NCBI GenBank assembly: GCA_028714455.1
Contig: JAQTMG010000001.1
Span: 568 to 64,567 of the forward strand
From: Patescibacteria group bacterium
GTDB lineage: Bacteria > Patescibacteriota > Patescibacteriia > CAIXNZ01
Reading direction: 5' to 3'
Length of the DNA stretch: 64,000 nt
Of this stretch, positions 6,203 through 29,251 are shown piece by piece; the first letter of the stretch is position 1; each line of letters opens with the position of its first letter. The notes under the pieces are model-generated. The model was not told the origin of the DNA and ran no database searches. It saw only the letters and a program-made list of their open reading frames with translations. The position numbers and the translations under genes were made by a program.

Positions 6203-6547
6203 CTATACATTGAGGTTGGTGATAACCTTCTCCTTTATGGGAACCTCTTTGGGAATTTCCTCGTCTGCATAATAGAATTCGAGTTCCTCTTGAGACAAGG
6301 ACTCTCTGATGCTCGGCGACAAAGAGGCGGGTTGAATTATCTCGCCTTTTTCCCTGGCCAACTCTGCTTCCTCACGCGATTCATAGACCTGGTTTCCAGA
6401 AGTACGCGGGATGCAAAAGCGCTTGAGAAACGGGCTGTTATCAGCAAACAGCTCAAACACAAAGTCTTTTGCTTCCTGACCATGAGGGAATATCTTCTCC
6501 AATTTTCCACCATCTCTGTACATCACCACGTAAGTGTAATCGGGCAT
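6203..6547 (-). CDS. hypothetical protein (114 aa), last gene of GC-rich small-protein operon
   Basis: Strong SD aaaaggaggccaaaATG; acidic C-terminus; YTYVVMYRDGG segment weakly resembles the IPH-motif paralogs upstream. Confidence 0.55.
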   Translation of the reverse strand: MPDYTYVVMYRDGGKLEKIFPHGQEAKDFVFELFADNSPFLKRFCIPRTSGNQVYESREEAELAREKGEIIQPASLSPSIRESLSQEELEFYYADEEIPKEVPIKEKVITNLNV

Positions 6548-6560
6548 TTTGGCCTCCTTT

Positions 6561-6722
6561 TCATTCAGCCCAAAGTCTGTACCAGTTTCCGTCTTTTGTC
6601 AACGCGTATCTTCTAAGTCCTTTTGTCAGTTTTGCCACCAATTCTTTACAAAACGGAGCTCCCACGCTTAATGCCCAGAAGCTCGGTTTTTGCAAATTCT
6701 CAAATTTGACCTTTCTGGCCAT
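6561..6722 (-). CDS. small ORF (53 aa) MARKVKFENLQKPSFWALSVGAPFCKELVAKLTKGLRRYALTKDGNWYRLWAE
   Basis: Not in ORF track (<60 aa); strong SD gaggagggtaaaATG; fills gap between flanking operon genes. Confidence 0.4.
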   Translation of the reverse strand: MARKVKFENLQKPSFWALSVGAPFCKELVAKLTKGLRRYALTKDGNWYRLWAE

Positions 6723-21620: not shown

Positions 21621-23855
21621 TTAATATCTTTTTCTGCCAAAACCACCATGGCCGCCGCGGCCGCCTCGATCTTCTCTTGGTCGGCGCGGACCTCGGTCGT
21701 CAAAACCGCCGCCTGGAGCTGGGACTGGTTTTTTGCCGCCTTCGATCAGAGAAAGATTGACTCGGCCCTGTGAATCAATTTCATCAACTTTAACTTTTAC
21801 CTCATCGCCGAGGTTCAGGACATCTGTAACTCTGGCGATTCTAAACGGCGCCATTTTTGAAATATGAATCATGCCGTCTTTGCCAGGCAAGACCTCCACA
21901 AAAGCGCCAAAGTCCATGATGCGCACAACTTTGCCATTATAAATTTCACCAACCTCAACCTCTTTCACAATATCCTTAATCCACATGACGGCTCTGGTTG
22001 CCATTTCAGAATTATTGGAAGTGACCATAACCTGACCGGTTTGTTCAACATCTATTGTTACGCCTGTCTCATCAATAATTTTATTGATCATCTTGCCGCC
22101 TGGGCCAATAACATCCTTGATTTTTTCAGGGTCGATAAAGAAACTGGTAATACGCGGCGCAAATGGCGATAAATCAGGTCTTGGTTTATCAATAACTTTG
22201 GACATCTCTTCAAGCACCTGGTTCAAAGCCTTTCTGCCCTGGCTCAAAGTTTCTTCAACCATTTTAATTGTTAAACCATCTGACTTGGTATCCATTTGAA
22301 TAGCTGTAATACCGTCTTTGGTGCCAGTGATTTTGAAATCCATGCCACCCGGACCATCTTCAAGATCTTGAAGATCGGTAATAATCTTGTATTTGCCGCT
22401 GCCATCAGTAGCTAAACCGAGAGCAATGCCAGCGACTGGATTTTTTATTGGCACGCCAGCATCCATCAGAGCCAGAGTTGAACCGCAAGTAGAAGCCATT
22501 GAGCTGGAACCATTTGAGCCCAGCGTTTCAGAAACAACTCGGATCGTATATGGAAAATTTTCTTTACTTGGTAAAACCGAAACCAAGGCTTTTTCAGCTA
22601 AGGCGCCGTGGCCAATTTCTCGACGACCCAATCCACGCATTGGCTTTACTTCTGCGACAGCAAAGGGCGCGAATGTATAATGATGCATGTATCTTTTTTC
22701 ACCGACTTCTTCCATACTTTCCAGAACCTGCGCTTCACCTGGCCCGGCCAAAGTCACGACCGAGAGAACCTGGGTTTCGCCTCTCTGAAATAAACCGCTG
22801 CCATGCAGGCGTTTAAAAATTCCTACCTCAAATGAAAGCGGCCTTATCTGATCAACTTTGCGTCCATCAACGCGAGCGCCAGTTTCCACAATGGCAGCTG
22901 AAGTTTTTTGCTCAATCATTTTTACCGACTCGATAATAACCTGATCAATCAACTCATCCTCATAACCTTTTTCAGTCAGCATCTTATGAAGTTCATTGGT
23001 CAATTCGTGCAAACCGTGTTTGCGTAATGCTTTGGTTGGCCGAACTTCATCAAGCAAATATGGCTTAACTTTTTCGCTGACAAATTTTTCAGCGATATCA
23101 AGCATTTCTTTTCTAATTTTCAATGTCTCTTCTGTTTCGTGAGGCATTAAATCCAAAACATTTAATTTATCCCTGCCTGCTTCTCTGACAACTTCATTGA
23201 TTAATCCAACAATGTCGCCCAGGGCTTTTTGGCCAAATTTAAAGGCCTCAAAAACGGTCTTATCTGGTACCTGTTTGGCTTCGGCTTCGATCATAATGAT
23301 TTTGTCTTTTGTGCCAGCCAATGTCAGTTCCAAATCACCTTCATTCAATTGAGCTACGGTTGGGTTCAAAATAAACTCGCCGTCTTTTTGGCCGATATTA
23401 ATTCCAGCCAACGGACCATTCCAGGGAATATTAGAAATAGCCAGTGCGGCTGAAGCAGCAATCAAGCCAACAATCTTTGATGGATTTTCTCCATCAACTG
23501 AAAGCACGGTCAAAATAACCTGCACTTCATTTCTAATCTCTTCGTTAAAAAGAGGTCTAATGGCGCGATCAATCATGCGTCCGTTTAATACTGCTTCATC
23601 GCCAGGTCTAGTATCTCTTTTAATAAACTTAGAACCTTTGATGCGACCTGCCGCATAAAGTCGTTCTTCAAATTCCACGGTCAATGGGAAGAAATCAATG
23701 CCCTCTCTAGTTTCCCGCGAAATTACGGCCGTAGCCAAAACAACCGTATCGCCATATGATACGGTCACGCTGCCATTGGCCTGATTAGCCAATTTGCCTG
23801 TCTCTATTTTGAGAGTCCGGCCAGCGATTTCCTTTTCAAATCGTAAAACTTCCAT
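21621..23855 (-). CDS. pnp: polyribonucleotide nucleotidyltransferase
   Basis: Two RNase PH domains, KH and S1 domains, Gly/Arg-rich C-terminal tail; start taken at MEVLRFEKE with SD AAGGA. Confidence 0.95.
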   Translation of the reverse strand: MEVLRFEKEIAGRTLKIETGKLANQANGSVTVSYGDTVVLATAVISRETREGIDFFPLTVEFEERLYAAGRIKGSKFIKRDTRPGDEAVLNGRMIDRAIRPLFNEEIRNEVQVILTVLSVDGENPSKIVGLIAASAALAISNIPWNGPLAGINIGQKDGEFILNPTVAQLNEGDLELTLAGTKDKIIMIEAEAKQVPDKTVFEAFKFGQKALGDIVGLINEVVREAGRDKLNVLDLMPHETEETLKIRKEMLDIAEKFVSEKVKPYLLDEVRPTKALRKHGLHELTNELHKMLTEKGYEDELIDQVIIESVKMIEQKTSAAIVETGARVDGRKVDQIRPLSFEVGIFKRLHGSGLFQRGETQVLSVVTLAGPGEAQVLESMEEVGEKRYMHHYTFAPFAVAEVKPMRGLGRREIGHGALAEKALVSVLPSKENFPYTIRVVSETLGSNGSSSMASTCGSTLALMDAGVPIKNPVAGIALGLATDGSGKYKIITDLQDLEDGPGGMDFKITGTKDGITAIQMDTKSDGLTIKMVEETLSQGRKALNQVLEEMSKVIDKPRPDLSPFAPRITSFFIDPEKIKDVIGPGGKMINKIIDETGVTIDVEQTGQVMVTSNNSEMATRAVMWIKDIVKEVEVGEIYNGKVVRIMDFGAFVEVLPGKDGMIHISKMAPFRIARVTDVLNLGDEVKVKVDEIDSQGRVNLSLIEGGKKPVPAPGGGFDDRGPRRPREDRGGRGGHGGFGRKRY

Positions 23856-23940
23856 AAGTTTTCCTTTCTTGCTGGCCAACATACTTCTGAATTGTTTGTG
23901 AAAAACAATTTCAGCTTGTCTGCCGGTCAGCTTATAATAA

Positions 23941-24630: not shown

Positions 24631-25149
24631 TTATCTTCTTCTTTTACCTGTAGTCATCAGATACTTACTCGGACTTGCTCCCAAATCAGTGTAATCATCA
24701 GCTACTTCAATAAGCTTGCTTGATGTACTCTTGGCAAAAGATATCACTTCAACAAGACAACCTTTATTTTCTCGCAAATAATTAACGAGCGAAATAAAAT
24801 CGCCATCGCCAGTCACCAAAACAACTACATCTAATTTGTCAGCCATTTTAATGGCATCAACGGCCATGCCTACGTCCCAGTCGGCCTTCTTGGCGCCGCC
24901 TGGAAAAATCTGCAAGTCCTTTACTTTAACTTCAAAACCCTGTTTCTCCAGTGTCTCCAAAAACTTTTTTTCTTCTCCACTTGGAGAAATGATAGCGTAA
25001 ACAACCGCTCTAATTAATTTTCTGCCAAAAACTGCGGTTTTCAAAAGTTCCTGAAAATTAACATTGGCCTTGTACAAATTCTTGGCCGAGTGATACATGT
25101 TTTGGACGTCGACGAAAATGCCGACTCTTTGTTCTTTGTGTTTTATCAT
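24631..25149 (-). CDS. NYN domain (LabA-like, PIN-like) protein
   Basis: VGIFVDVQNMYHS ... VLVTGDGDF motifs. Confidence 0.75.
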   Translation of the reverse strand: MIKHKEQRVGIFVDVQNMYHSAKNLYKANVNFQELLKTAVFGRKLIRAVVYAIISPSGEEKKFLETLEKQGFEVKVKDLQIFPGGAKKADWDVGMAVDAIKMADKLDVVVLVTGDGDFISLVNYLRENKGCLVEVISFAKSTSSKLIEVADDYTDLGASPSKYLMTTGKRRR

Positions 25150-25235: not shown

Positions 25236-25511
25236 TTATTCTGCGACTTTAAGTTTTAAACTTTTTAATAGTTTTTCGTAACCTTCTAAATTTTCCCTCT
25301 TCAGATAAGTCATTAATTTTTTTCTCTCCTGGACTTTTTTTATCAAGCCAAGGCGAGATGAATAATCATGCTTGTGATTTTTCATGTGTTCGGTCAACGA
25401 TTTAATTTCCTGCGTCAGAATCGCGATCTGCACCTCGGCCGAACCAGTGTCCTTGTCGTGCAGCCGAAACTTTTTAATAATTTTGTCCTTCTCTTCCTTT
25501 GTTAATGCCAT
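25236..25511 (-). CDS. rpsO: 30S ribosomal protein S15
   Basis: MALTKEEKDKIIKKF...GLIKKVQERKKLMTYLKR; start at ATG 25511 with SD. Confidence 0.9.
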   Translation of the reverse strand: MALTKEEKDKIIKKFRLHDKDTGSAEVQIAILTQEIKSLTEHMKNHKHDYSSRLGLIKKVQERKKLMTYLKRENLEGYEKLLKSLKLKVAE

Positions 25512-25729
25512 AAAGCATCCTTTCAATTGCGCTTATCCAAGATAGATTTGGCAAATCTAACCGAGAAAACGCCTTACTTTGTTAATTATTAGCATAATAA
25601 CACTCAAAAGTAATGATGTCAAGGCAAGGTAAGATACTAATATACTAATACTATACTAATTTACGAATTTTCTTCCCTGGACAATTCGTATATTCGTAAC
25701 TCTAAAAATTTGTTAAACTCAATTAAGTA

Positions 25730-25758
25730 TTGACGTGTTTCTATTAATTTGTTTAAAT
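25730..25758 (+). promoter_or_regulatory. promoter TTGACG-N17-TTAAAT for ncRNA candidate
   Basis: Exact 17-nt spacer; no ORF downstream. Confidence 0.45.
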
Positions 25759-25764
25759 GCGAAC

Positions 25765-25987
25765 AAGCGTAGAAACAGTACGGCGACTCGTGCCCATCTA
25801 AACACGAGGAAAGGGTTCGACTCCCTTTGACTGGCTTTACAAGGAGCTTTTATCTGCCGAGAATAGTTGGGAGGCAATGAATCCCGGTTTTCGGACTGGG
25901 TGGAGCCGAATCTGGAATACCAACCGGATAAAAGACCTTGGCAAGTTCTGCGCTAGGGGGAGAGTGCCACAACCTCTCCCTTTTTTC
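25765..25987 (+). ncRNA. candidate ~220-nt structured ncRNA (identity unresolved; short RNase P / tmRNA-like motifs)
   Basis: 630-bp gap without ORFs; promoter upstream; strong terminator GGGGAGAG-N9-CTCTCCC plus T6 at 25957-25987; hairpin GTTTCTA...TAGAAAC; motifs CGAGGAAAGGGTTCGACTCCC (cf. RNase P CR-I GAGGAAAG; tRNA-like T-arm) and GAATCCCGGTTTTCGG (cf. RNase P P4 3' strand GAACCCGGCTTATCGG). Confidence 0.4.
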
Positions 25988-25999
25988 TTTTCTAAAAAT

Positions 26000-26028
26000 T
26001 TGTCAAAATTGCTTAAGTGTCGTAAAAT
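26000..26028 (+). promoter_or_regulatory. promoter TTGTCA-N17-TAAAAT upstream of xerC/D
   Basis: Hexamer spacing 17. Confidence 0.4.
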
Positions 26029-26062
26029 AATGACTATAAGATAATAAGAGCTACAAGAGCTA

Positions 26063-26150
26063 AATGCCCATAGGCCTAAATGTTTCTCTCGGCCTATTAG
26101 CCTATAGTTCTTCTAGTCGTATAGCTCTTATAGCTCCTATATAACAAAGA
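26063..26150. repeat. degenerate AGAGCT / TAGCTC repeat block in xer 5' leader
   Basis: aagagctacaagagctaaatgcccataggcct...tatagctcttatagctcctat; related to heptamer family. Confidence 0.4.
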
Positions 26151-26156
26151 GTTTAA

Positions 26157-27101
26157 ATGGAAAAATCAAAGTTACAAAATTTAATCCGCGAGTTTCTCGA
26201 ATATCTCGAGATCGAAAAAGGCCGTTCCCGGATGACCATCAGAAATTATGAATTTTATTTACTGCGTTTTTTAACTTGGTCAAATTTTAAAAATCCAGAA
26301 CAAATCACCAGCGACACGGTGCGCAATTATCGGCTCTGGTTAAATCGCCAGAAAGATTCGACTGGACAATTTTTAAAGAAAAATACGCAAAACTATCACT
26401 TAATCGCCTTGCGCGCCTTTTTAAAATATCTGGCTAAGCGCGATATTAAGACTTTGCCGCCGGAAAAAATTGAATTAGCCAAAATGCCAGACCGCCAGAT
26501 TGAATTTTTAGAAGGTTTTGATTTGGAAAACTTTATGGAAGCGCCAATGAAAGTTGAAGAACCGGAAATAATAAGATTGCGTGACAAATCAATTTTAGAA
26601 ACCTTGTTTTCAACCGGACTTCGTGTGTCAGAACTTTCCAATTTAAAAAAAGAGGTTGTTAATTTAAATAAAGATGAATTCACGGTCCGCGGCAAGGGTT
26701 CAAAGCTGCGCGTTGTTTTTCTTTCCAACCAAGCTAAATATTGGCTGAAAAAATATCTGGAAGCGCGAAAAGACATGTCGCAATTTCTATTTACCAATCA
26801 CGACAAAGCCGGTAACAAAAGAAATAAAAAGGGTGATGACAAACCTTTGACGCCGCGCAGTATTCAAAGAATCGTGGAAAAATATGCCAAGGTCGCGGGC
26901 ATCACCAAAAAAATCACGCCCCATGTCCTGCGACATTCTTTTGCCACTGATTTATTAATCAACGGCGCGGATATTCGTTCTGTCCAATCAATGCTGGGCC
27001 ATTCCAGCATCACCACGACTCAAATTTATACGCACATTACAGACAGGCAACTACGCGAAGTGTATAAAAATTTTCACGGCAAGAGAAGAAGAAAGGAATA
27101 A
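26157..27101 (+). CDS. xerC: tyrosine recombinase XerC/XerD family
   Basis: N-terminal core-binding domain; C-terminal RHSFATDLLINGADIRSVQSMLGHSSITTTQIYTHI with catalytic Y. Confidence 0.85.
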   Translation: MEKSKLQNLIREFLEYLEIEKGRSRMTIRNYEFYLLRFLTWSNFKNPEQITSDTVRNYRLWLNRQKDSTGQFLKKNTQNYHLIALRAFLKYLAKRDIKTLPPEKIELAKMPDRQIEFLEGFDLENFMEAPMKVEEPEIIRLRDKSILETLFSTGLRVSELSNLKKEVVNLNKDEFTVRGKGSKLRVVFLSNQAKYWLKKYLEARKDMSQFLFTNHDKAGNKRNKKGDDKPLTPRSIQRIVEKYAKVAGITKKITPHVLRHSFATDLLINGADIRSVQSMLGHSSITTTQIYTHITDRQLREVYKNFHGKRRRKE

Positions 27102-27626: not shown

Positions 27627-27681
27627 ATATGATTTGCAAGTGTCCAAGTGCCAAGAGCTCAAGGTTCCAAGAATCCAAGAA

Positions 27682-28296
27682 CTACTTGCGGACGGCCAAG
27701 AAACGGCAACAGGCACCCCAATGACCGTCACCACCGAACCAATAGAGGAAGAGCTTGCGCTCGCCATCAGTGAAGTTCAGGTACGGACAGCTACGATTGC
27801 CGAAGGCATCGACCCAGACCGAGCCGAGAGCGACGATCGGAAACTCCCGTTGAACATCCGGGTTGGCCGCTCCAAAGGCGAGCAGGTGTTCAATGCTAGC
27901 CGGCTTAAGACCCAGACCGTCAAGATGCGCCAGCGCTTCTTTGGTCGTAGCGTCTTTGTTGAGATGAACCAGAACCAATTCGGCTTCTTGCTGACCGACG
28001 CCCTGGACAGGAAAGTGCTTGTCGCTGATGTCGTCATTGACCCAGGCATATTTGCCGAGCTTGATCATCTCGGTGAGCGTCTTGCCGTAGTCCACGACCA
28101 CTCTGTAGGTGTCGCTGGCTTTTTGCCGGCCGAACATGATCAGTTCGGCAACCTGCTTGACCAACTTGCTGTCAGTGAGCAGGCGGTGCAGATCGTCGTC
28201 GCCGCCGCCCAATTCCAGGACGGCATTTGTGATCGCTTGCATTATGGACCACATTTTGCCGGCGGCCTTCAAAAACTCGCTTTTCTTTCTTGCCAT
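27682..28296 (-). CDS. hypothetical protein (204 aa) with C-terminal Cys/Trp-rich domain ...HWGACCRFLAVRK, GC-rich
   Basis: Strong SD aaaggaggatttgacaATG; the mirror-image plus-strand ORF 27634..28323 lacks ATG/SD and is rejected. Confidence 0.6.
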   Translation of the reverse strand: MARKKSEFLKAAGKMWSIMQAITNAVLELGGGDDDLHRLLTDSKLVKQVAELIMFGRQKASDTYRVVVDYGKTLTEMIKLGKYAWVNDDISDKHFPVQGVGQQEAELVLVHLNKDATTKEALAHLDGLGLKPASIEHLLAFGAANPDVQREFPIVALGSVWVDAFGNRSCPYLNFTDGERKLFLYWFGGDGHWGACCRFLAVRK

Positions 28297-28532
28297 TGTC
28301 AAATCCTCCTTTGTCGCGCTTAGCGACTCCAGTGGCTTGCCCCTTGCTTTGACTTTCAAGGCCTAAGGCTTGCCAAGTATGCTTTCATACTATCATACTT
28401 TTATAATTTTGTCAATGATAACGATTCAAAAATTAGCTAATATTAAATAAATAAATTTTTTAGCTATCTTTAGACAATAAATCCAGGCAAAGTTGACTAA
28501 GACCAAAATTTTTGCTAAACTATATTATAATA

Positions 28533-28906: not shown

Positions 28907-29251
28907 ATGTTTGATTTTGAAAAACTTGAAGTTTATAAAAAAGCCAAAAATATAAATGTTGAAATTTCGGAATTTTTAAAATCTGCAAATGTAGATATTT
29001 TCCTGAATAATCAGTTGAAAAGAGCTTCGTTAAGCATATTATTGAATATTGCGGAAGGTAGCGGTAGATCAACAAAAAGAGATAAAAGAAATTTTTTTGT
29101 CATTGCTCGCGGTTCGGTCTTTGAGTGCACTTCAATTTTTGATCTATTATTCACAGAGAAAGAAATTGAAATTGAAAAATATAATTATTTTTACAATCAG
29201 CTTGAAGAGATTTCAAAAATGCTATACGGTCTAATCAAAACTCATGAATAA
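28907..29251 (+). CDS. four-helix-bundle protein (23S rRNA intervening-sequence / Avd-like family)
   Basis: 114 aa; KLEVYKKA...LKRASLSILLNIAEGSGRSTKRDKRNFFVIARGSVFECTSIFDLL pattern of TIGR02436-type proteins; flanked by inverted GCAAGAG-rich repeats (28883-28895 / 29256-29280). Confidence 0.75.
   Translation: MFDFEKLEVYKKAKNINVEISEFLKSANVDIFLNNQLKRASLSILLNIAEGSGRSTKRDKRNFFVIARGSVFECTSIFDLLFTEKEIEIEKYNYFYNQLEEISKMLYGLIKTHE

Follow-up and report, generated by a model that had tools for sequence, protein, structure and literature searches.

What is encoded in the 630-bp gap (25527-26156) that separates rpsO (25236-25511, - strand) from xer (26157-27101, + strand), a gene for a XerC/D-type tyrosine recombinase, in a genome of the Patescibacteria (candidate phyla radiation, CPR)? 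The gap lies in a 64-kb stretch of this genome (the window, to whose positions all coordinates refer), in the gene order pnp (21621-23882, -), a hypothetical gene, an NYN-domain gene (24631-25149, -), rpsO and xer. An earlier reading made from the letters of the window alone (the sequence-only reading) had described the gap as free of open reading frames (ORFs) and had placed in it a structured RNA of ~220 nt, to be identified as 6S RNA, a reduced RNase P RNA or a novel small RNA (sRNA); indeed, the ORFs of the gap are all ≤55 aa, and none is kept across the indel-rich homologs. The analysis presented here points to an sRNA that belongs to no curated family and that combines a tRNA-like 5' domain with a 3' arm which, as judged from sequence and fold, is very probably a long helix that ends in a full copy of the structure of the 23S rRNA L1 stalk.

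The L1-stalk domain occupies 25847..25934 (+) and reads GAGAAUAG-UUGGGAGGC-AAUGAA-H78-GGAGCC-GAAUCUGGAAUACCAACC, including both T-loop motifs. With cmscan this region (25847-25934) corresponds to positions 2127-2214 of the bacterial large subunit (LSU) rRNA model (LSU_rRNA_bacteria, RF02541; 49.7 bits, E-value 2.8e-14), that is, to helices 76-77-78 (H76-H78), all of which are formed, and nearly all invariant positions of the model are retained, with UGG in place of UGA as the single departure. Only 88 nt of the 2925 model positions are matched, and with the E. coli 23S rRNA (locus L033) nhmmer finds a match confined to positions 2072-2179, so that the domain stands by itself and does not belong to an rRNA gene. 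The LSU match is visible only when the 241-nt transcript is searched and is filtered out in a search of 701 nt around the RNA, which at E ≤ 10 returned only noise; at gathering thresholds, Rfam reported nine tRNAs and no rRNA in the whole window. Helix 77 is built from different pairs in the window, in the phage copies described below and in E. coli (GUUGG/CCAAC, GAUGG/CCAUC, GGCGG/CCGCC, GUGGG/CCCAC and GGUGG/CCACC), and pairing extends to 95% of cells in an alignment of eight stalk sequences (window, the homologous locus L002, the phage copies and E. coli). The covariation score of this alignment, 0.65 compared with 0.23 in shuffles, was reached by none of 500 shuffles, and slid controls gave ≤0.11. 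Compared with the L1 stalk of 23S rRNA (E. coli nt ~2093-2196), the secondary structure is the same, GAG.AUAG, GGGAGGC, GAA, GGAGCC, AAUACC and the closing of H77 are shared, and both interdigitated T-loops are retained; the window RNA differs in its H76, which is extended by ~10 bp, in the identity of the 2112:2169 pair (C:G), and in its setting between rpsO and xer, where the stalk is flanked by a promoter, a closing helix (P1), a tRNA-like domain and a terminator.

The predicted transcription unit that carries this domain has both a promoter and a terminator. A sigma-70-type promoter lies at 25730..25758 (+), with the -35 element TTGACG (25730-25735), a 17-nt spacer and the -10 element TTAAAT (25753-25758), extended by a TG at 25750-51 (TGn), and transcription is predicted to start at ~25765-25766. 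An intrinsic terminator follows at 25957..25987 (+), composed of GGGGAGAG (25957-64), a 9-nt loop, CTCTCCC (25974-80) and T6 (25981-86). Both signals had been named in the sequence-only reading and both hold up, the promoter being kept in the two homologs (L002 and L032) and the terminator in L002, where the stem is conserved and changes are found in the loop only. Automated scanners passed over both, since the consensus promoter rule demands an A at position 2 of the -10 element and the terminator loop exceeds 8 nt. TTGAC, ATTTGYTTAAAT and the 8-nt distance from the -10 element to P1 are invariant in the window, L002 and L032, which have in common TTGAC-N17-TGnTTAAAT, followed after 8 nt by GCGYAGAAACAGU, while xer has a promoter of its own (TTGTCA-N17-TAAAAT, 26000-26028) between the RNA terminator and its coding region. 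The RNA also stands out as a GC island (0.47-0.49 over 25750-25950 compared with 0.26-0.35 in the flanks), and the + strand folds better than shuffled sequence (z-score -2.9), whereas the - strand does not (z-score -1.1). Because the promoter-P1 spacing and the terminator are conserved and xer keeps its own promoter downstream, ~25766-25987 (+) is predicted to be an independent sRNA gene with its own promoter and terminator, giving an RNA of ~221 nt, much as the sequence-only reading had proposed. The hairpin GTTTCTA...TAGAAAC, which had been listed among the features of this region, does exist, yet it stretches across the promoter and lacks conservation, its TAGAAAC belonging instead to P1.

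In both the minimum free energy (MFE) fold and the comparative model, the RNA forms a three-way junction in which P1 joins two arms, the tRNA-like domain and the L1-stalk domain. The 5' strand of P1 (GCGUAGAA, 25767..25774, +) pairs in the MFE fold with 25946-25953 and thereby closes the whole RNA; its 3' strand (UUCUGCGC, 25946..25953, +) is identical in L002, where P1 reads GCGCAGAA/UUCUGCGC with a G-U pair replaced by G-C, and the helix can be written GCGYAGAA/UUCUGCGC across the homologs. The tRNA-like domain (25776..25833, +) is itself a small three-way junction, folded with the same architecture in the window, L002 and L032. It consists of the 4-bp helix P2 (CAGU/ACUG, 25776-79/25830-33, +), a conserved CGG (25781-83, +) between P2 and the variable arm, a variable hairpin (25787-92/25803-08, +) that is longer in L002 and L032, and a T-arm, AAAGGG-UUCGACU-CCCUUU (25810-25828, +), with the stem 25810-15/25823-28 and the loop 25816-22. 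The sequence-only reading had already likened AGGG-TTCGACT-CCCT to a tRNA T-arm, and this likeness is strengthened by the homologs: the stem reads AAGGG/CCCUU, GAAGG/CUUUC and GAAGG/CCUUC in the three sequences, with two compensatory positions, while the loop is kept as UUCRACU in all three. In Rfam the T-arm alone scores weakly (mascRNA, 11.3 bits; TYMV TLS, 10.9 bits); ARAGORN and the Rfam tRNA model give no match at 25766-25846, and no cloverleaf is formed. Weak T-arm matches were also seen downstream of xer in L005 and L006, where they are ordinary tRNA-Arg and tRNA-His genes. On the other side of the junction, the H76 extension pairs CUUUACAAGG (25835..25844, +) with CCUUGGCAAG (25936-25945) in the MFE fold and the comparative model, and in L002 it is different in sequence yet self-complementary (AUUCUAG.../...CUAAGAAU). 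The comparative model, with P1, the tRNA-like junction, the extended H76 and the stalk head, has a free energy of -59.5 kcal/mol compared with -64.1 for the MFE fold. MAFFT and RNAalifold misaligned the 5' ends of the two full RNAs, and the helices were therefore compared in hand-anchored blocks.

Homologs were sought by a synteny walk via Xer and S15 homologs and were found only in L002 and L032, two contigs of a narrow clade that bears the label Falkowbacteria, in each case between rpsO and xer as in the window. The L002 homolog is full-length (Xer 91% and S15 97% identical to those of the window), with an RNA of ~320 nt in which the variable arm is ~90 nt larger than in the window; the L032 homolog is cut by a contig end (S15 95% identical). 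Although Xer and S15 are 91-97% identical among the RNA-bearing genomes, the intergenic DNA is otherwise unalignable, and against this divergence the promoter, P1, P2, the T-loop, GAGAAUAG.YGGGAGGC, GAA and the terminator stem are kept, as is GGAGC-N9-AAUACCAACC in both full-length copies (window and L002). The blocks common to the window and L002 are exactly the conserved stalk nucleotides. By contrast, H76 and H78 differ fully in sequence and length between the homologs, yet remain paired, and the indels of H78 and of the variable arm likewise maintain pairing. Because these blocks are kept and the helices change in a compensatory manner amid unalignable intergenic DNA, the pattern indicates purifying selection on what is presumably a separately transcribed structured RNA.

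Copies of the same module occur elsewhere. A scan of IMG/VR with the pattern GGGAGGC-N3-GAA...GGAGCC-N8-AATACC returned seven loci, one of which is a genuine 23S gene, while the rest hold only a stalk copy of 80-95 nt. These represent five phage-like copies, namely L034/L037 (the same phage in two metagenomes; 645-722, +, and 6497-6574, -, respectively), L035 (1720-1800, +), L036 (6908-6993, +), L038 (31-119, -) and L039 (9-80, -), in which H77 and H78 covary and which are neighboured by phage genes such as that of a baseplate wedge. The L035 copy is embedded in 2.6 kb of ORF-poor sequence, upstream of an array of eight tRNAs, and the L038 copy after two tRNA genes, whereas the other three of the five are not beside tRNAs, those of L034/L037 and L036 being located between a gene end and a terminator. 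Like the window RNA, the phage copies comprise an isolated H76-H78 with the invariant core outside any rRNA gene; unlike it, they are bare stalk hairpins without a fused P1 or tRNA-like domain. No Rfam family covers them, the combined T-arm and stalk pattern was absent from the viral contigs scanned, a blast of the window RNA against phage and plasmid collections gave no match, and among cultured phages neither the E. coli stalk nor the flanks of the phage mimics retrieved anything but contaminating 23S records. As free-standing elements, the phage copies show an apparent use of the L1-stalk module outside ribosomes. In the first 2600 nt of L035, a 221-kb viral contig, a tRNA-like hairpin RNA (GGAAGATG...ACCGG-TTCGACT-CCGGT...CATCTTCC) is found ~130 nt upstream of the stalk copy, and 976-1013 is a weak match to 23S positions 1056-1093 (L11/GTPase-centre region); L035 1-2600 perhaps represents a group of clustered rRNA and tRNA mimics.

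Among close relatives, presence of the RNA is irregular. The synteny walk found it absent from L003/L004, L005, L006, L017-L021, L026/L027 and L028. In L003/L004, L028 and L026/L027 the S15 is 95-97% identical to that of the window (and the Xer of L026 93%), and the gap at the locus measures only ~260-350 bp, these relatives lacking the segment that corresponds to ~25697-25990 of the window, a cassette of ~290 bp. Flanking the cassette on both sides is a 28-nt direct repeat (family D2; spacing 290, 82% identity), the upstream copy of which (TCTAAAAATTTGTTAAACTCAATTAAGT, 25701..25728, +) marks the left boundary and is a degenerate duplicate of the xer promoter region, while the downstream copy (25991-26018, within 25991..26028, +) marks the right boundary outside the RNA and overlaps the xer promoter. 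The RNA-less relatives have a single repeat copy, with the xer promoter directly after the rpsO upstream region. Either the cassette was inserted with duplication of its site or it was repeatedly lost via recombination between the repeats; a dif-like, Xer-mediated origin is conceivable. Presence and absence are interleaved, because the upstream flank of the window is closer to the RNA-less relatives than to L002 and L032. Since it is present or absent among near-identical loci, we infer that the RNA gene is accessory and cassette-like rather than core.

What such an RNA might do can be approached from its stalk head. In the ribosome, uL1 binds the H77/H78 junction of 23S rRNA, and it autoregulates the L11 operon through its weaker binding to a mimic of this site in the mRNA. 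The explanation that we favour, though tentatively, is that the RNA, imitating the L1 stalk of the ribosome, would work in trans by binding uL1, tRNA elbows or both. Its stalk head would bind uL1, as does the stalk in the ribosome and the L11-operon leader in cis, and because of this binding the RNA would serve to titrate or stockpile free uL1. A tRNA elbow, or the elbow of the RNA's own tRNA-like arm, might be docked as well. A function specifically as a uL1 decoy is plausible and calls for somewhat more caution: what points to uL1 binding is the conservation of the H77/H78 junction nucleotides, and the presence of uL1 in this organism is assumed (none of the ten window ORFs of suitable size that were scanned belongs to the L1 family). 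Several further observations weigh against a function as stalk mimic. The platform pair, G2112:A2169 in the ribosome, is C:G in the window RNA and, with C:G, U:A, G:G or A:G, is not conserved across the copies. In L002 the stalk core is partly degenerate, in that the A of GGGAGGC is lost and H77 is weakened, and neither homolog scores against the LSU model (L002 with its long H78 and degenerate core, L032 being truncated), which in the case of L002 fits a relaxed constraint on that copy. All evidence for the complete RNA comes from three sequences (window, L002 and L032) of one narrow clade at one locus. Two narrow patterns retrieved no homolog: GGTTCGANTC..GAATCC..ATACCAAC gave ten chance or tRNA-related matches in GTDB genomes, and GGTTCRANTC..GGAGC-N9-AATACCAAC gave two chance matches in coding DNA of JGI metagenomes, a collection evidently without the sample of L002 itself. 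Lastly, with three equally close relatives devoid of it, the RNA is apparently dispensable.

The same features can be read in other ways. The stalk's double T-loop is one of three known modules for docking tRNA elbows (PMC4810234), and the same module is what T-box Stem I and RNase P, like the L1 stalk, use to dock elbows (PMC4810234, PMC4919913). The double T-loop head might thus capture tRNA elbows, for example of deacylated tRNA, or that of its own tRNA-like arm, and the RNA would then be a tRNA sponge, sensor or chaperone rather than a uL1 decoy. This would account for the retention of both stalk T-loops, beyond the H77/H78 junction that suffices for the mRNA mimics, for the tRNA-like domain with its T-arm and conserved CGG (a possible G18/G19 analogue) in the same molecule, and for the tRNA arrays adjoining the phage copies of L035 and L038. 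We nevertheless regard it as not very likely as the sole function: the 2112:2169 platform pair varies between the copies, the majority of phage copies have no tRNA neighbours, and with an L1 arm of ~21 bp and a tRNA-like arm of ~10 bp intramolecular docking looks geometrically awkward. Elbow binding and uL1 binding may also operate together. It is less likely still that the element is a non-functional or selfish relic, either a 23S fragment and a tRNA fragment captured between duplicated promoter sequences or a carried-in cassette, now decaying. Decay would explain the relatives without the RNA, and the presence/absence polymorphism at one locus between 28-nt direct repeats, the very narrow distribution and the degenerate stalk core of L002 are in keeping with it, but a relic would hardly keep promoter, terminator, P1, T-loop and stalk core in three lineages despite unalignable intergenic DNA, or change its helices in a compensatory manner and preserve pairing through the indels of H78 and the variable arm.

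A further explanation starts from the host ribosome. Helix 78 of 23S rRNA ("23Gap3") is reported to be deleted in some Parcubacteria, including Falkowbacteria, Magasanikbacteria and Uhrbacteria, uL1 is missing in a different group of Parcubacteria, and some CPR ribosomes have either no L1 stalk or only an incomplete one (Tsurumaki et al., bioRxiv 10.1101/2022.01.07.475337). If the 23S rRNA of the host had lost H78, the RNA together with uL1 could supply the stalk head in trans, either in loose association with the ribosome, of which it would be a component, or as a particle of its own by which deacylated tRNA is removed from the E site. The lineage of the window is labelled Falkowbacteria, its closest named relative being a metagenome-assembled genome (MAG) labelled Candidatus Falkowbacteria with a 93% identical Xer, and the complete H76-H78 with a tRNA-like arm would in principle be able to occupy a tRNA site. 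However, the link between the H78-less ribosomes and this RNA is circumstantial, H76 is closed within the RNA and its ends are tied by P1, so that, unlike in known fragmented rRNAs, no strand is free to pair with 23S rRNA, and the closest relatives, including the Falkowbacteria MAG, lack the RNA at this locus. A detached stalk is accordingly quite improbable; a broader version, in which uL1 and the tRNA-like arm serve tRNA elbow capture or E-site docking in an H78-less lineage and the phage modules exploit the same interaction, is distinctly unlikely as well, if marginally less so. That the RNA is a cis-acting leader of xer, in which binding of uL1 or tRNA controls read-through of the terminator, is suggested by its position on the xer strand immediately upstream of the gene and by its end in a terminator; it is highly improbable given the conserved xer promoter between terminator and gene, which by itself serves xer in RNA-less relatives, the lack of an evident alternative antiterminator pairing and of a functional link between the recombinase and uL1. 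An identity as reduced RNase P RNA, 6S RNA or tmRNA, for which the size, the own promoter and terminator, the string GAGGAAAG and the T-arm-like hairpin had spoken, is scarcely credible: no model matches, the features are explained otherwise, and near-identical relatives do without the RNA at the syntenic locus, where an essential RNA would not be missing.

The searches behind this last verdict started from the identities that the sequence-only reading had left in play. The search it had proposed, cmscan against Rfam, brought a strong match to an LSU rRNA fragment and nothing for RNase P, tmRNA, 6S or the signal recognition particle (SRP) RNA; an absence of Rfam matches together with a lack of conservation, which it had named as grounds for dropping the candidate, was not what was found, the element being present in two related contigs. 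Helix P4 of RNase P RNA is formed by the conserved regions CR-I (GAGGAAAGUCC...) and CR-V (ACAGAAxCCGGCUUA), and GAGGAAAG had been taken for CR-I and GAATCCCGGTTTTCGG for a counterpart of the 3' strand of P4. Both strings are present as described, but their RNase P meaning fails: GAGGAAAG becomes GGAGGCAAAGAAGG in L002 and GAGAACAAGGGAUAAGAAGG in L032, and the supposed 3' strand (GAAUCCCGGUUUUCGG) is the start of H78 in the stalk copy. No P4 helix can be drawn, the 5' strand being part of the T-hairpin, which is unfit as a long-range P4 strand because its stem is backed by compensatory changes. Neither RF00010 nor RF00011 appears at E ≤ 10 in cmscan searches of stretches of 85-701 nt (241-701 nt for the window RNA and its surroundings) from the window and L002, in which matches below ~10 bits are not listed; CPR RNase P RNAs are divergent and are found only at low scores, of ~5 bits and above (PMC8172020). 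For tmRNA, ARAGORN and Rfam give no match, and the absence of a tag frame and of a CCA end, on which the sequence-only reading was correct, is seen here as well, the ends pairing as P1 before the terminator. The three-way junction of both the MFE and comparative folds is unlike the rod with a central bubble of 6S RNA, for which there is no Rfam match either, and SRP RNA gave none at E ≤ 10. A T-box riboswitch finds no Rfam match, and the gene downstream is xer with its own promoter. In its architecture, moreover, the fold does not suit any of these families, RNase P, 6S, tmRNA, SRP and T-box alike. A 23S rRNA gene is excluded by the neighbours, rpsO and xer, in place of a contiguous ~2.9-kb rRNA, and a leader of the L11 or L1 operon by a downstream gene that encodes a tyrosine recombinase and is separated from the RNA by a terminator and its own promoter.

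Set beside known systems, the proposed stalk mimic combines familiar parts in a new arrangement. There are precedents both for cis-acting mimics of rRNA, directed at ribosomal proteins, and for sRNAs that titrate proteins. Like the uL1 sites in mRNAs (the E. coli L11-operon leader and the Methanococcus L1-operon mRNA), it is a candidate uL1 site off the ribosome that mimics rRNA; those sites are minimal H77/H78 junction mimics in the 5' region of the rplK/rplA mRNA that they regulate, whereas the window RNA comprises the whole stalk, both T-loops included, and forms a terminated transcript of its own at a site not adjoining rplKA. With T-box Stem I and the RNase P S-domain it shares the interdigitated double T-loops, but it has no specifier loop, T-box sequence, antiterminator or RNase P catalytic core. 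The tRNA-like domain resembles the tRNA modules of tmRNA and of YrlA/Y RNAs in its T-arm, which has a UUCRACU loop and stacks on a short acceptor-like helix, in the GG-containing linker that replaces the D-arm, in the variable arm in place of the anticodon arm and in the pairing of the ends of the host RNA; it differs in lacking an acceptor end, a CCA and a tag ORF and in having as its partner domain an rRNA mimic, found in none of those RNAs. The immediate neighbours (pnp, NYN, rpsO and xer) offer no Ro/Rsr context, so that the likeness to YrlA/Y RNA is limited to the tRNA-like module. The proposed logic, a stable sRNA that imitates a nucleic-acid ligand and titrates an abundant protein, is that of 6S RNA and CsrB/RsmZ, with a different protein and fold, an rRNA domain as the ligand mimicked, and a sequestration that is predicted here. 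The literature searched yielded no account of a stand-alone sRNA in which a complete functional domain of rRNA is joined to a tRNA-like module, and no Rfam family covers the window RNA as a whole. Mimicry of rRNA has so far been known from short sites that act in cis within the mRNAs of ribosomal proteins; in the present case, an entire functional domain of the ribosome, the mobile L1 stalk that handles E-site tRNA, would be a stand-alone sRNA fused to a tRNA-like arm. Together with the phage copies, the window RNA suggests an unrecognised class of trans-acting mimics of rRNA domains, which bears on the functioning of CPR ribosomes whose L1 stalk is truncated and on the role of uL1 off the ribosome. 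Were the RNA a detached stalk, it would be the first ribosomal functional domain known as a separately encoded and used bacterial small RNA.

The surroundings of the cassette hold features of their own. On the rpsO side, L002, L031 and L032 retain the 5' leader of rpsO (25527-25600, -; ctttcaattgcgcttatccaagata.atttggcaaatctaaccgagaaaacgc) with 94-98% conservation, unlike the remainder of the gap, which is divergent. No Rfam family matches this segment, which is likely an S15 autoregulatory leader. A promoter (TTGACA-N17-TATTAT) is found at 25622-25594 (-), and between it and the RNA cassette three direct repeats of the ATACTAAT type (25634-25668) are also present in the RNA-less L003 and L028. 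The 5' untranslated region (UTR) of xer (26030-26150) contains a 19-nt inverted repeat (26044-62/26122-40) with AGCTC/GAGCT-rich units; because it is absent in L003 and L028 and replaced in L002 by ~190 nt of CCTAT-type repeats, it is a hypervariable insert. Farther along, two ORFs of ~225-229 aa overlap on opposite strands (27634-28323, +, and 27682-28359, -), the one on the minus strand having no Pfam match. Small genes of the 23S_rRNA_IVP family (PF05635) occur in relatives (L029/L030 533-907, L031 452-826 and L026 8-352), in L029-L031 inserted between rpsO and the NYN gene, and a window ORF of 114 aa (28907-29251) lies at the position matching the PF05635 gene of L026. The neighbourhood looks like a hot spot for small insertions, and L005 (80% Xer identity) shows that the rpsO-xer gap accepts different small cargo, since in place of the RNA it holds two small cysteine-rich, zinc-ribbon-like ORFs (1993-2420).

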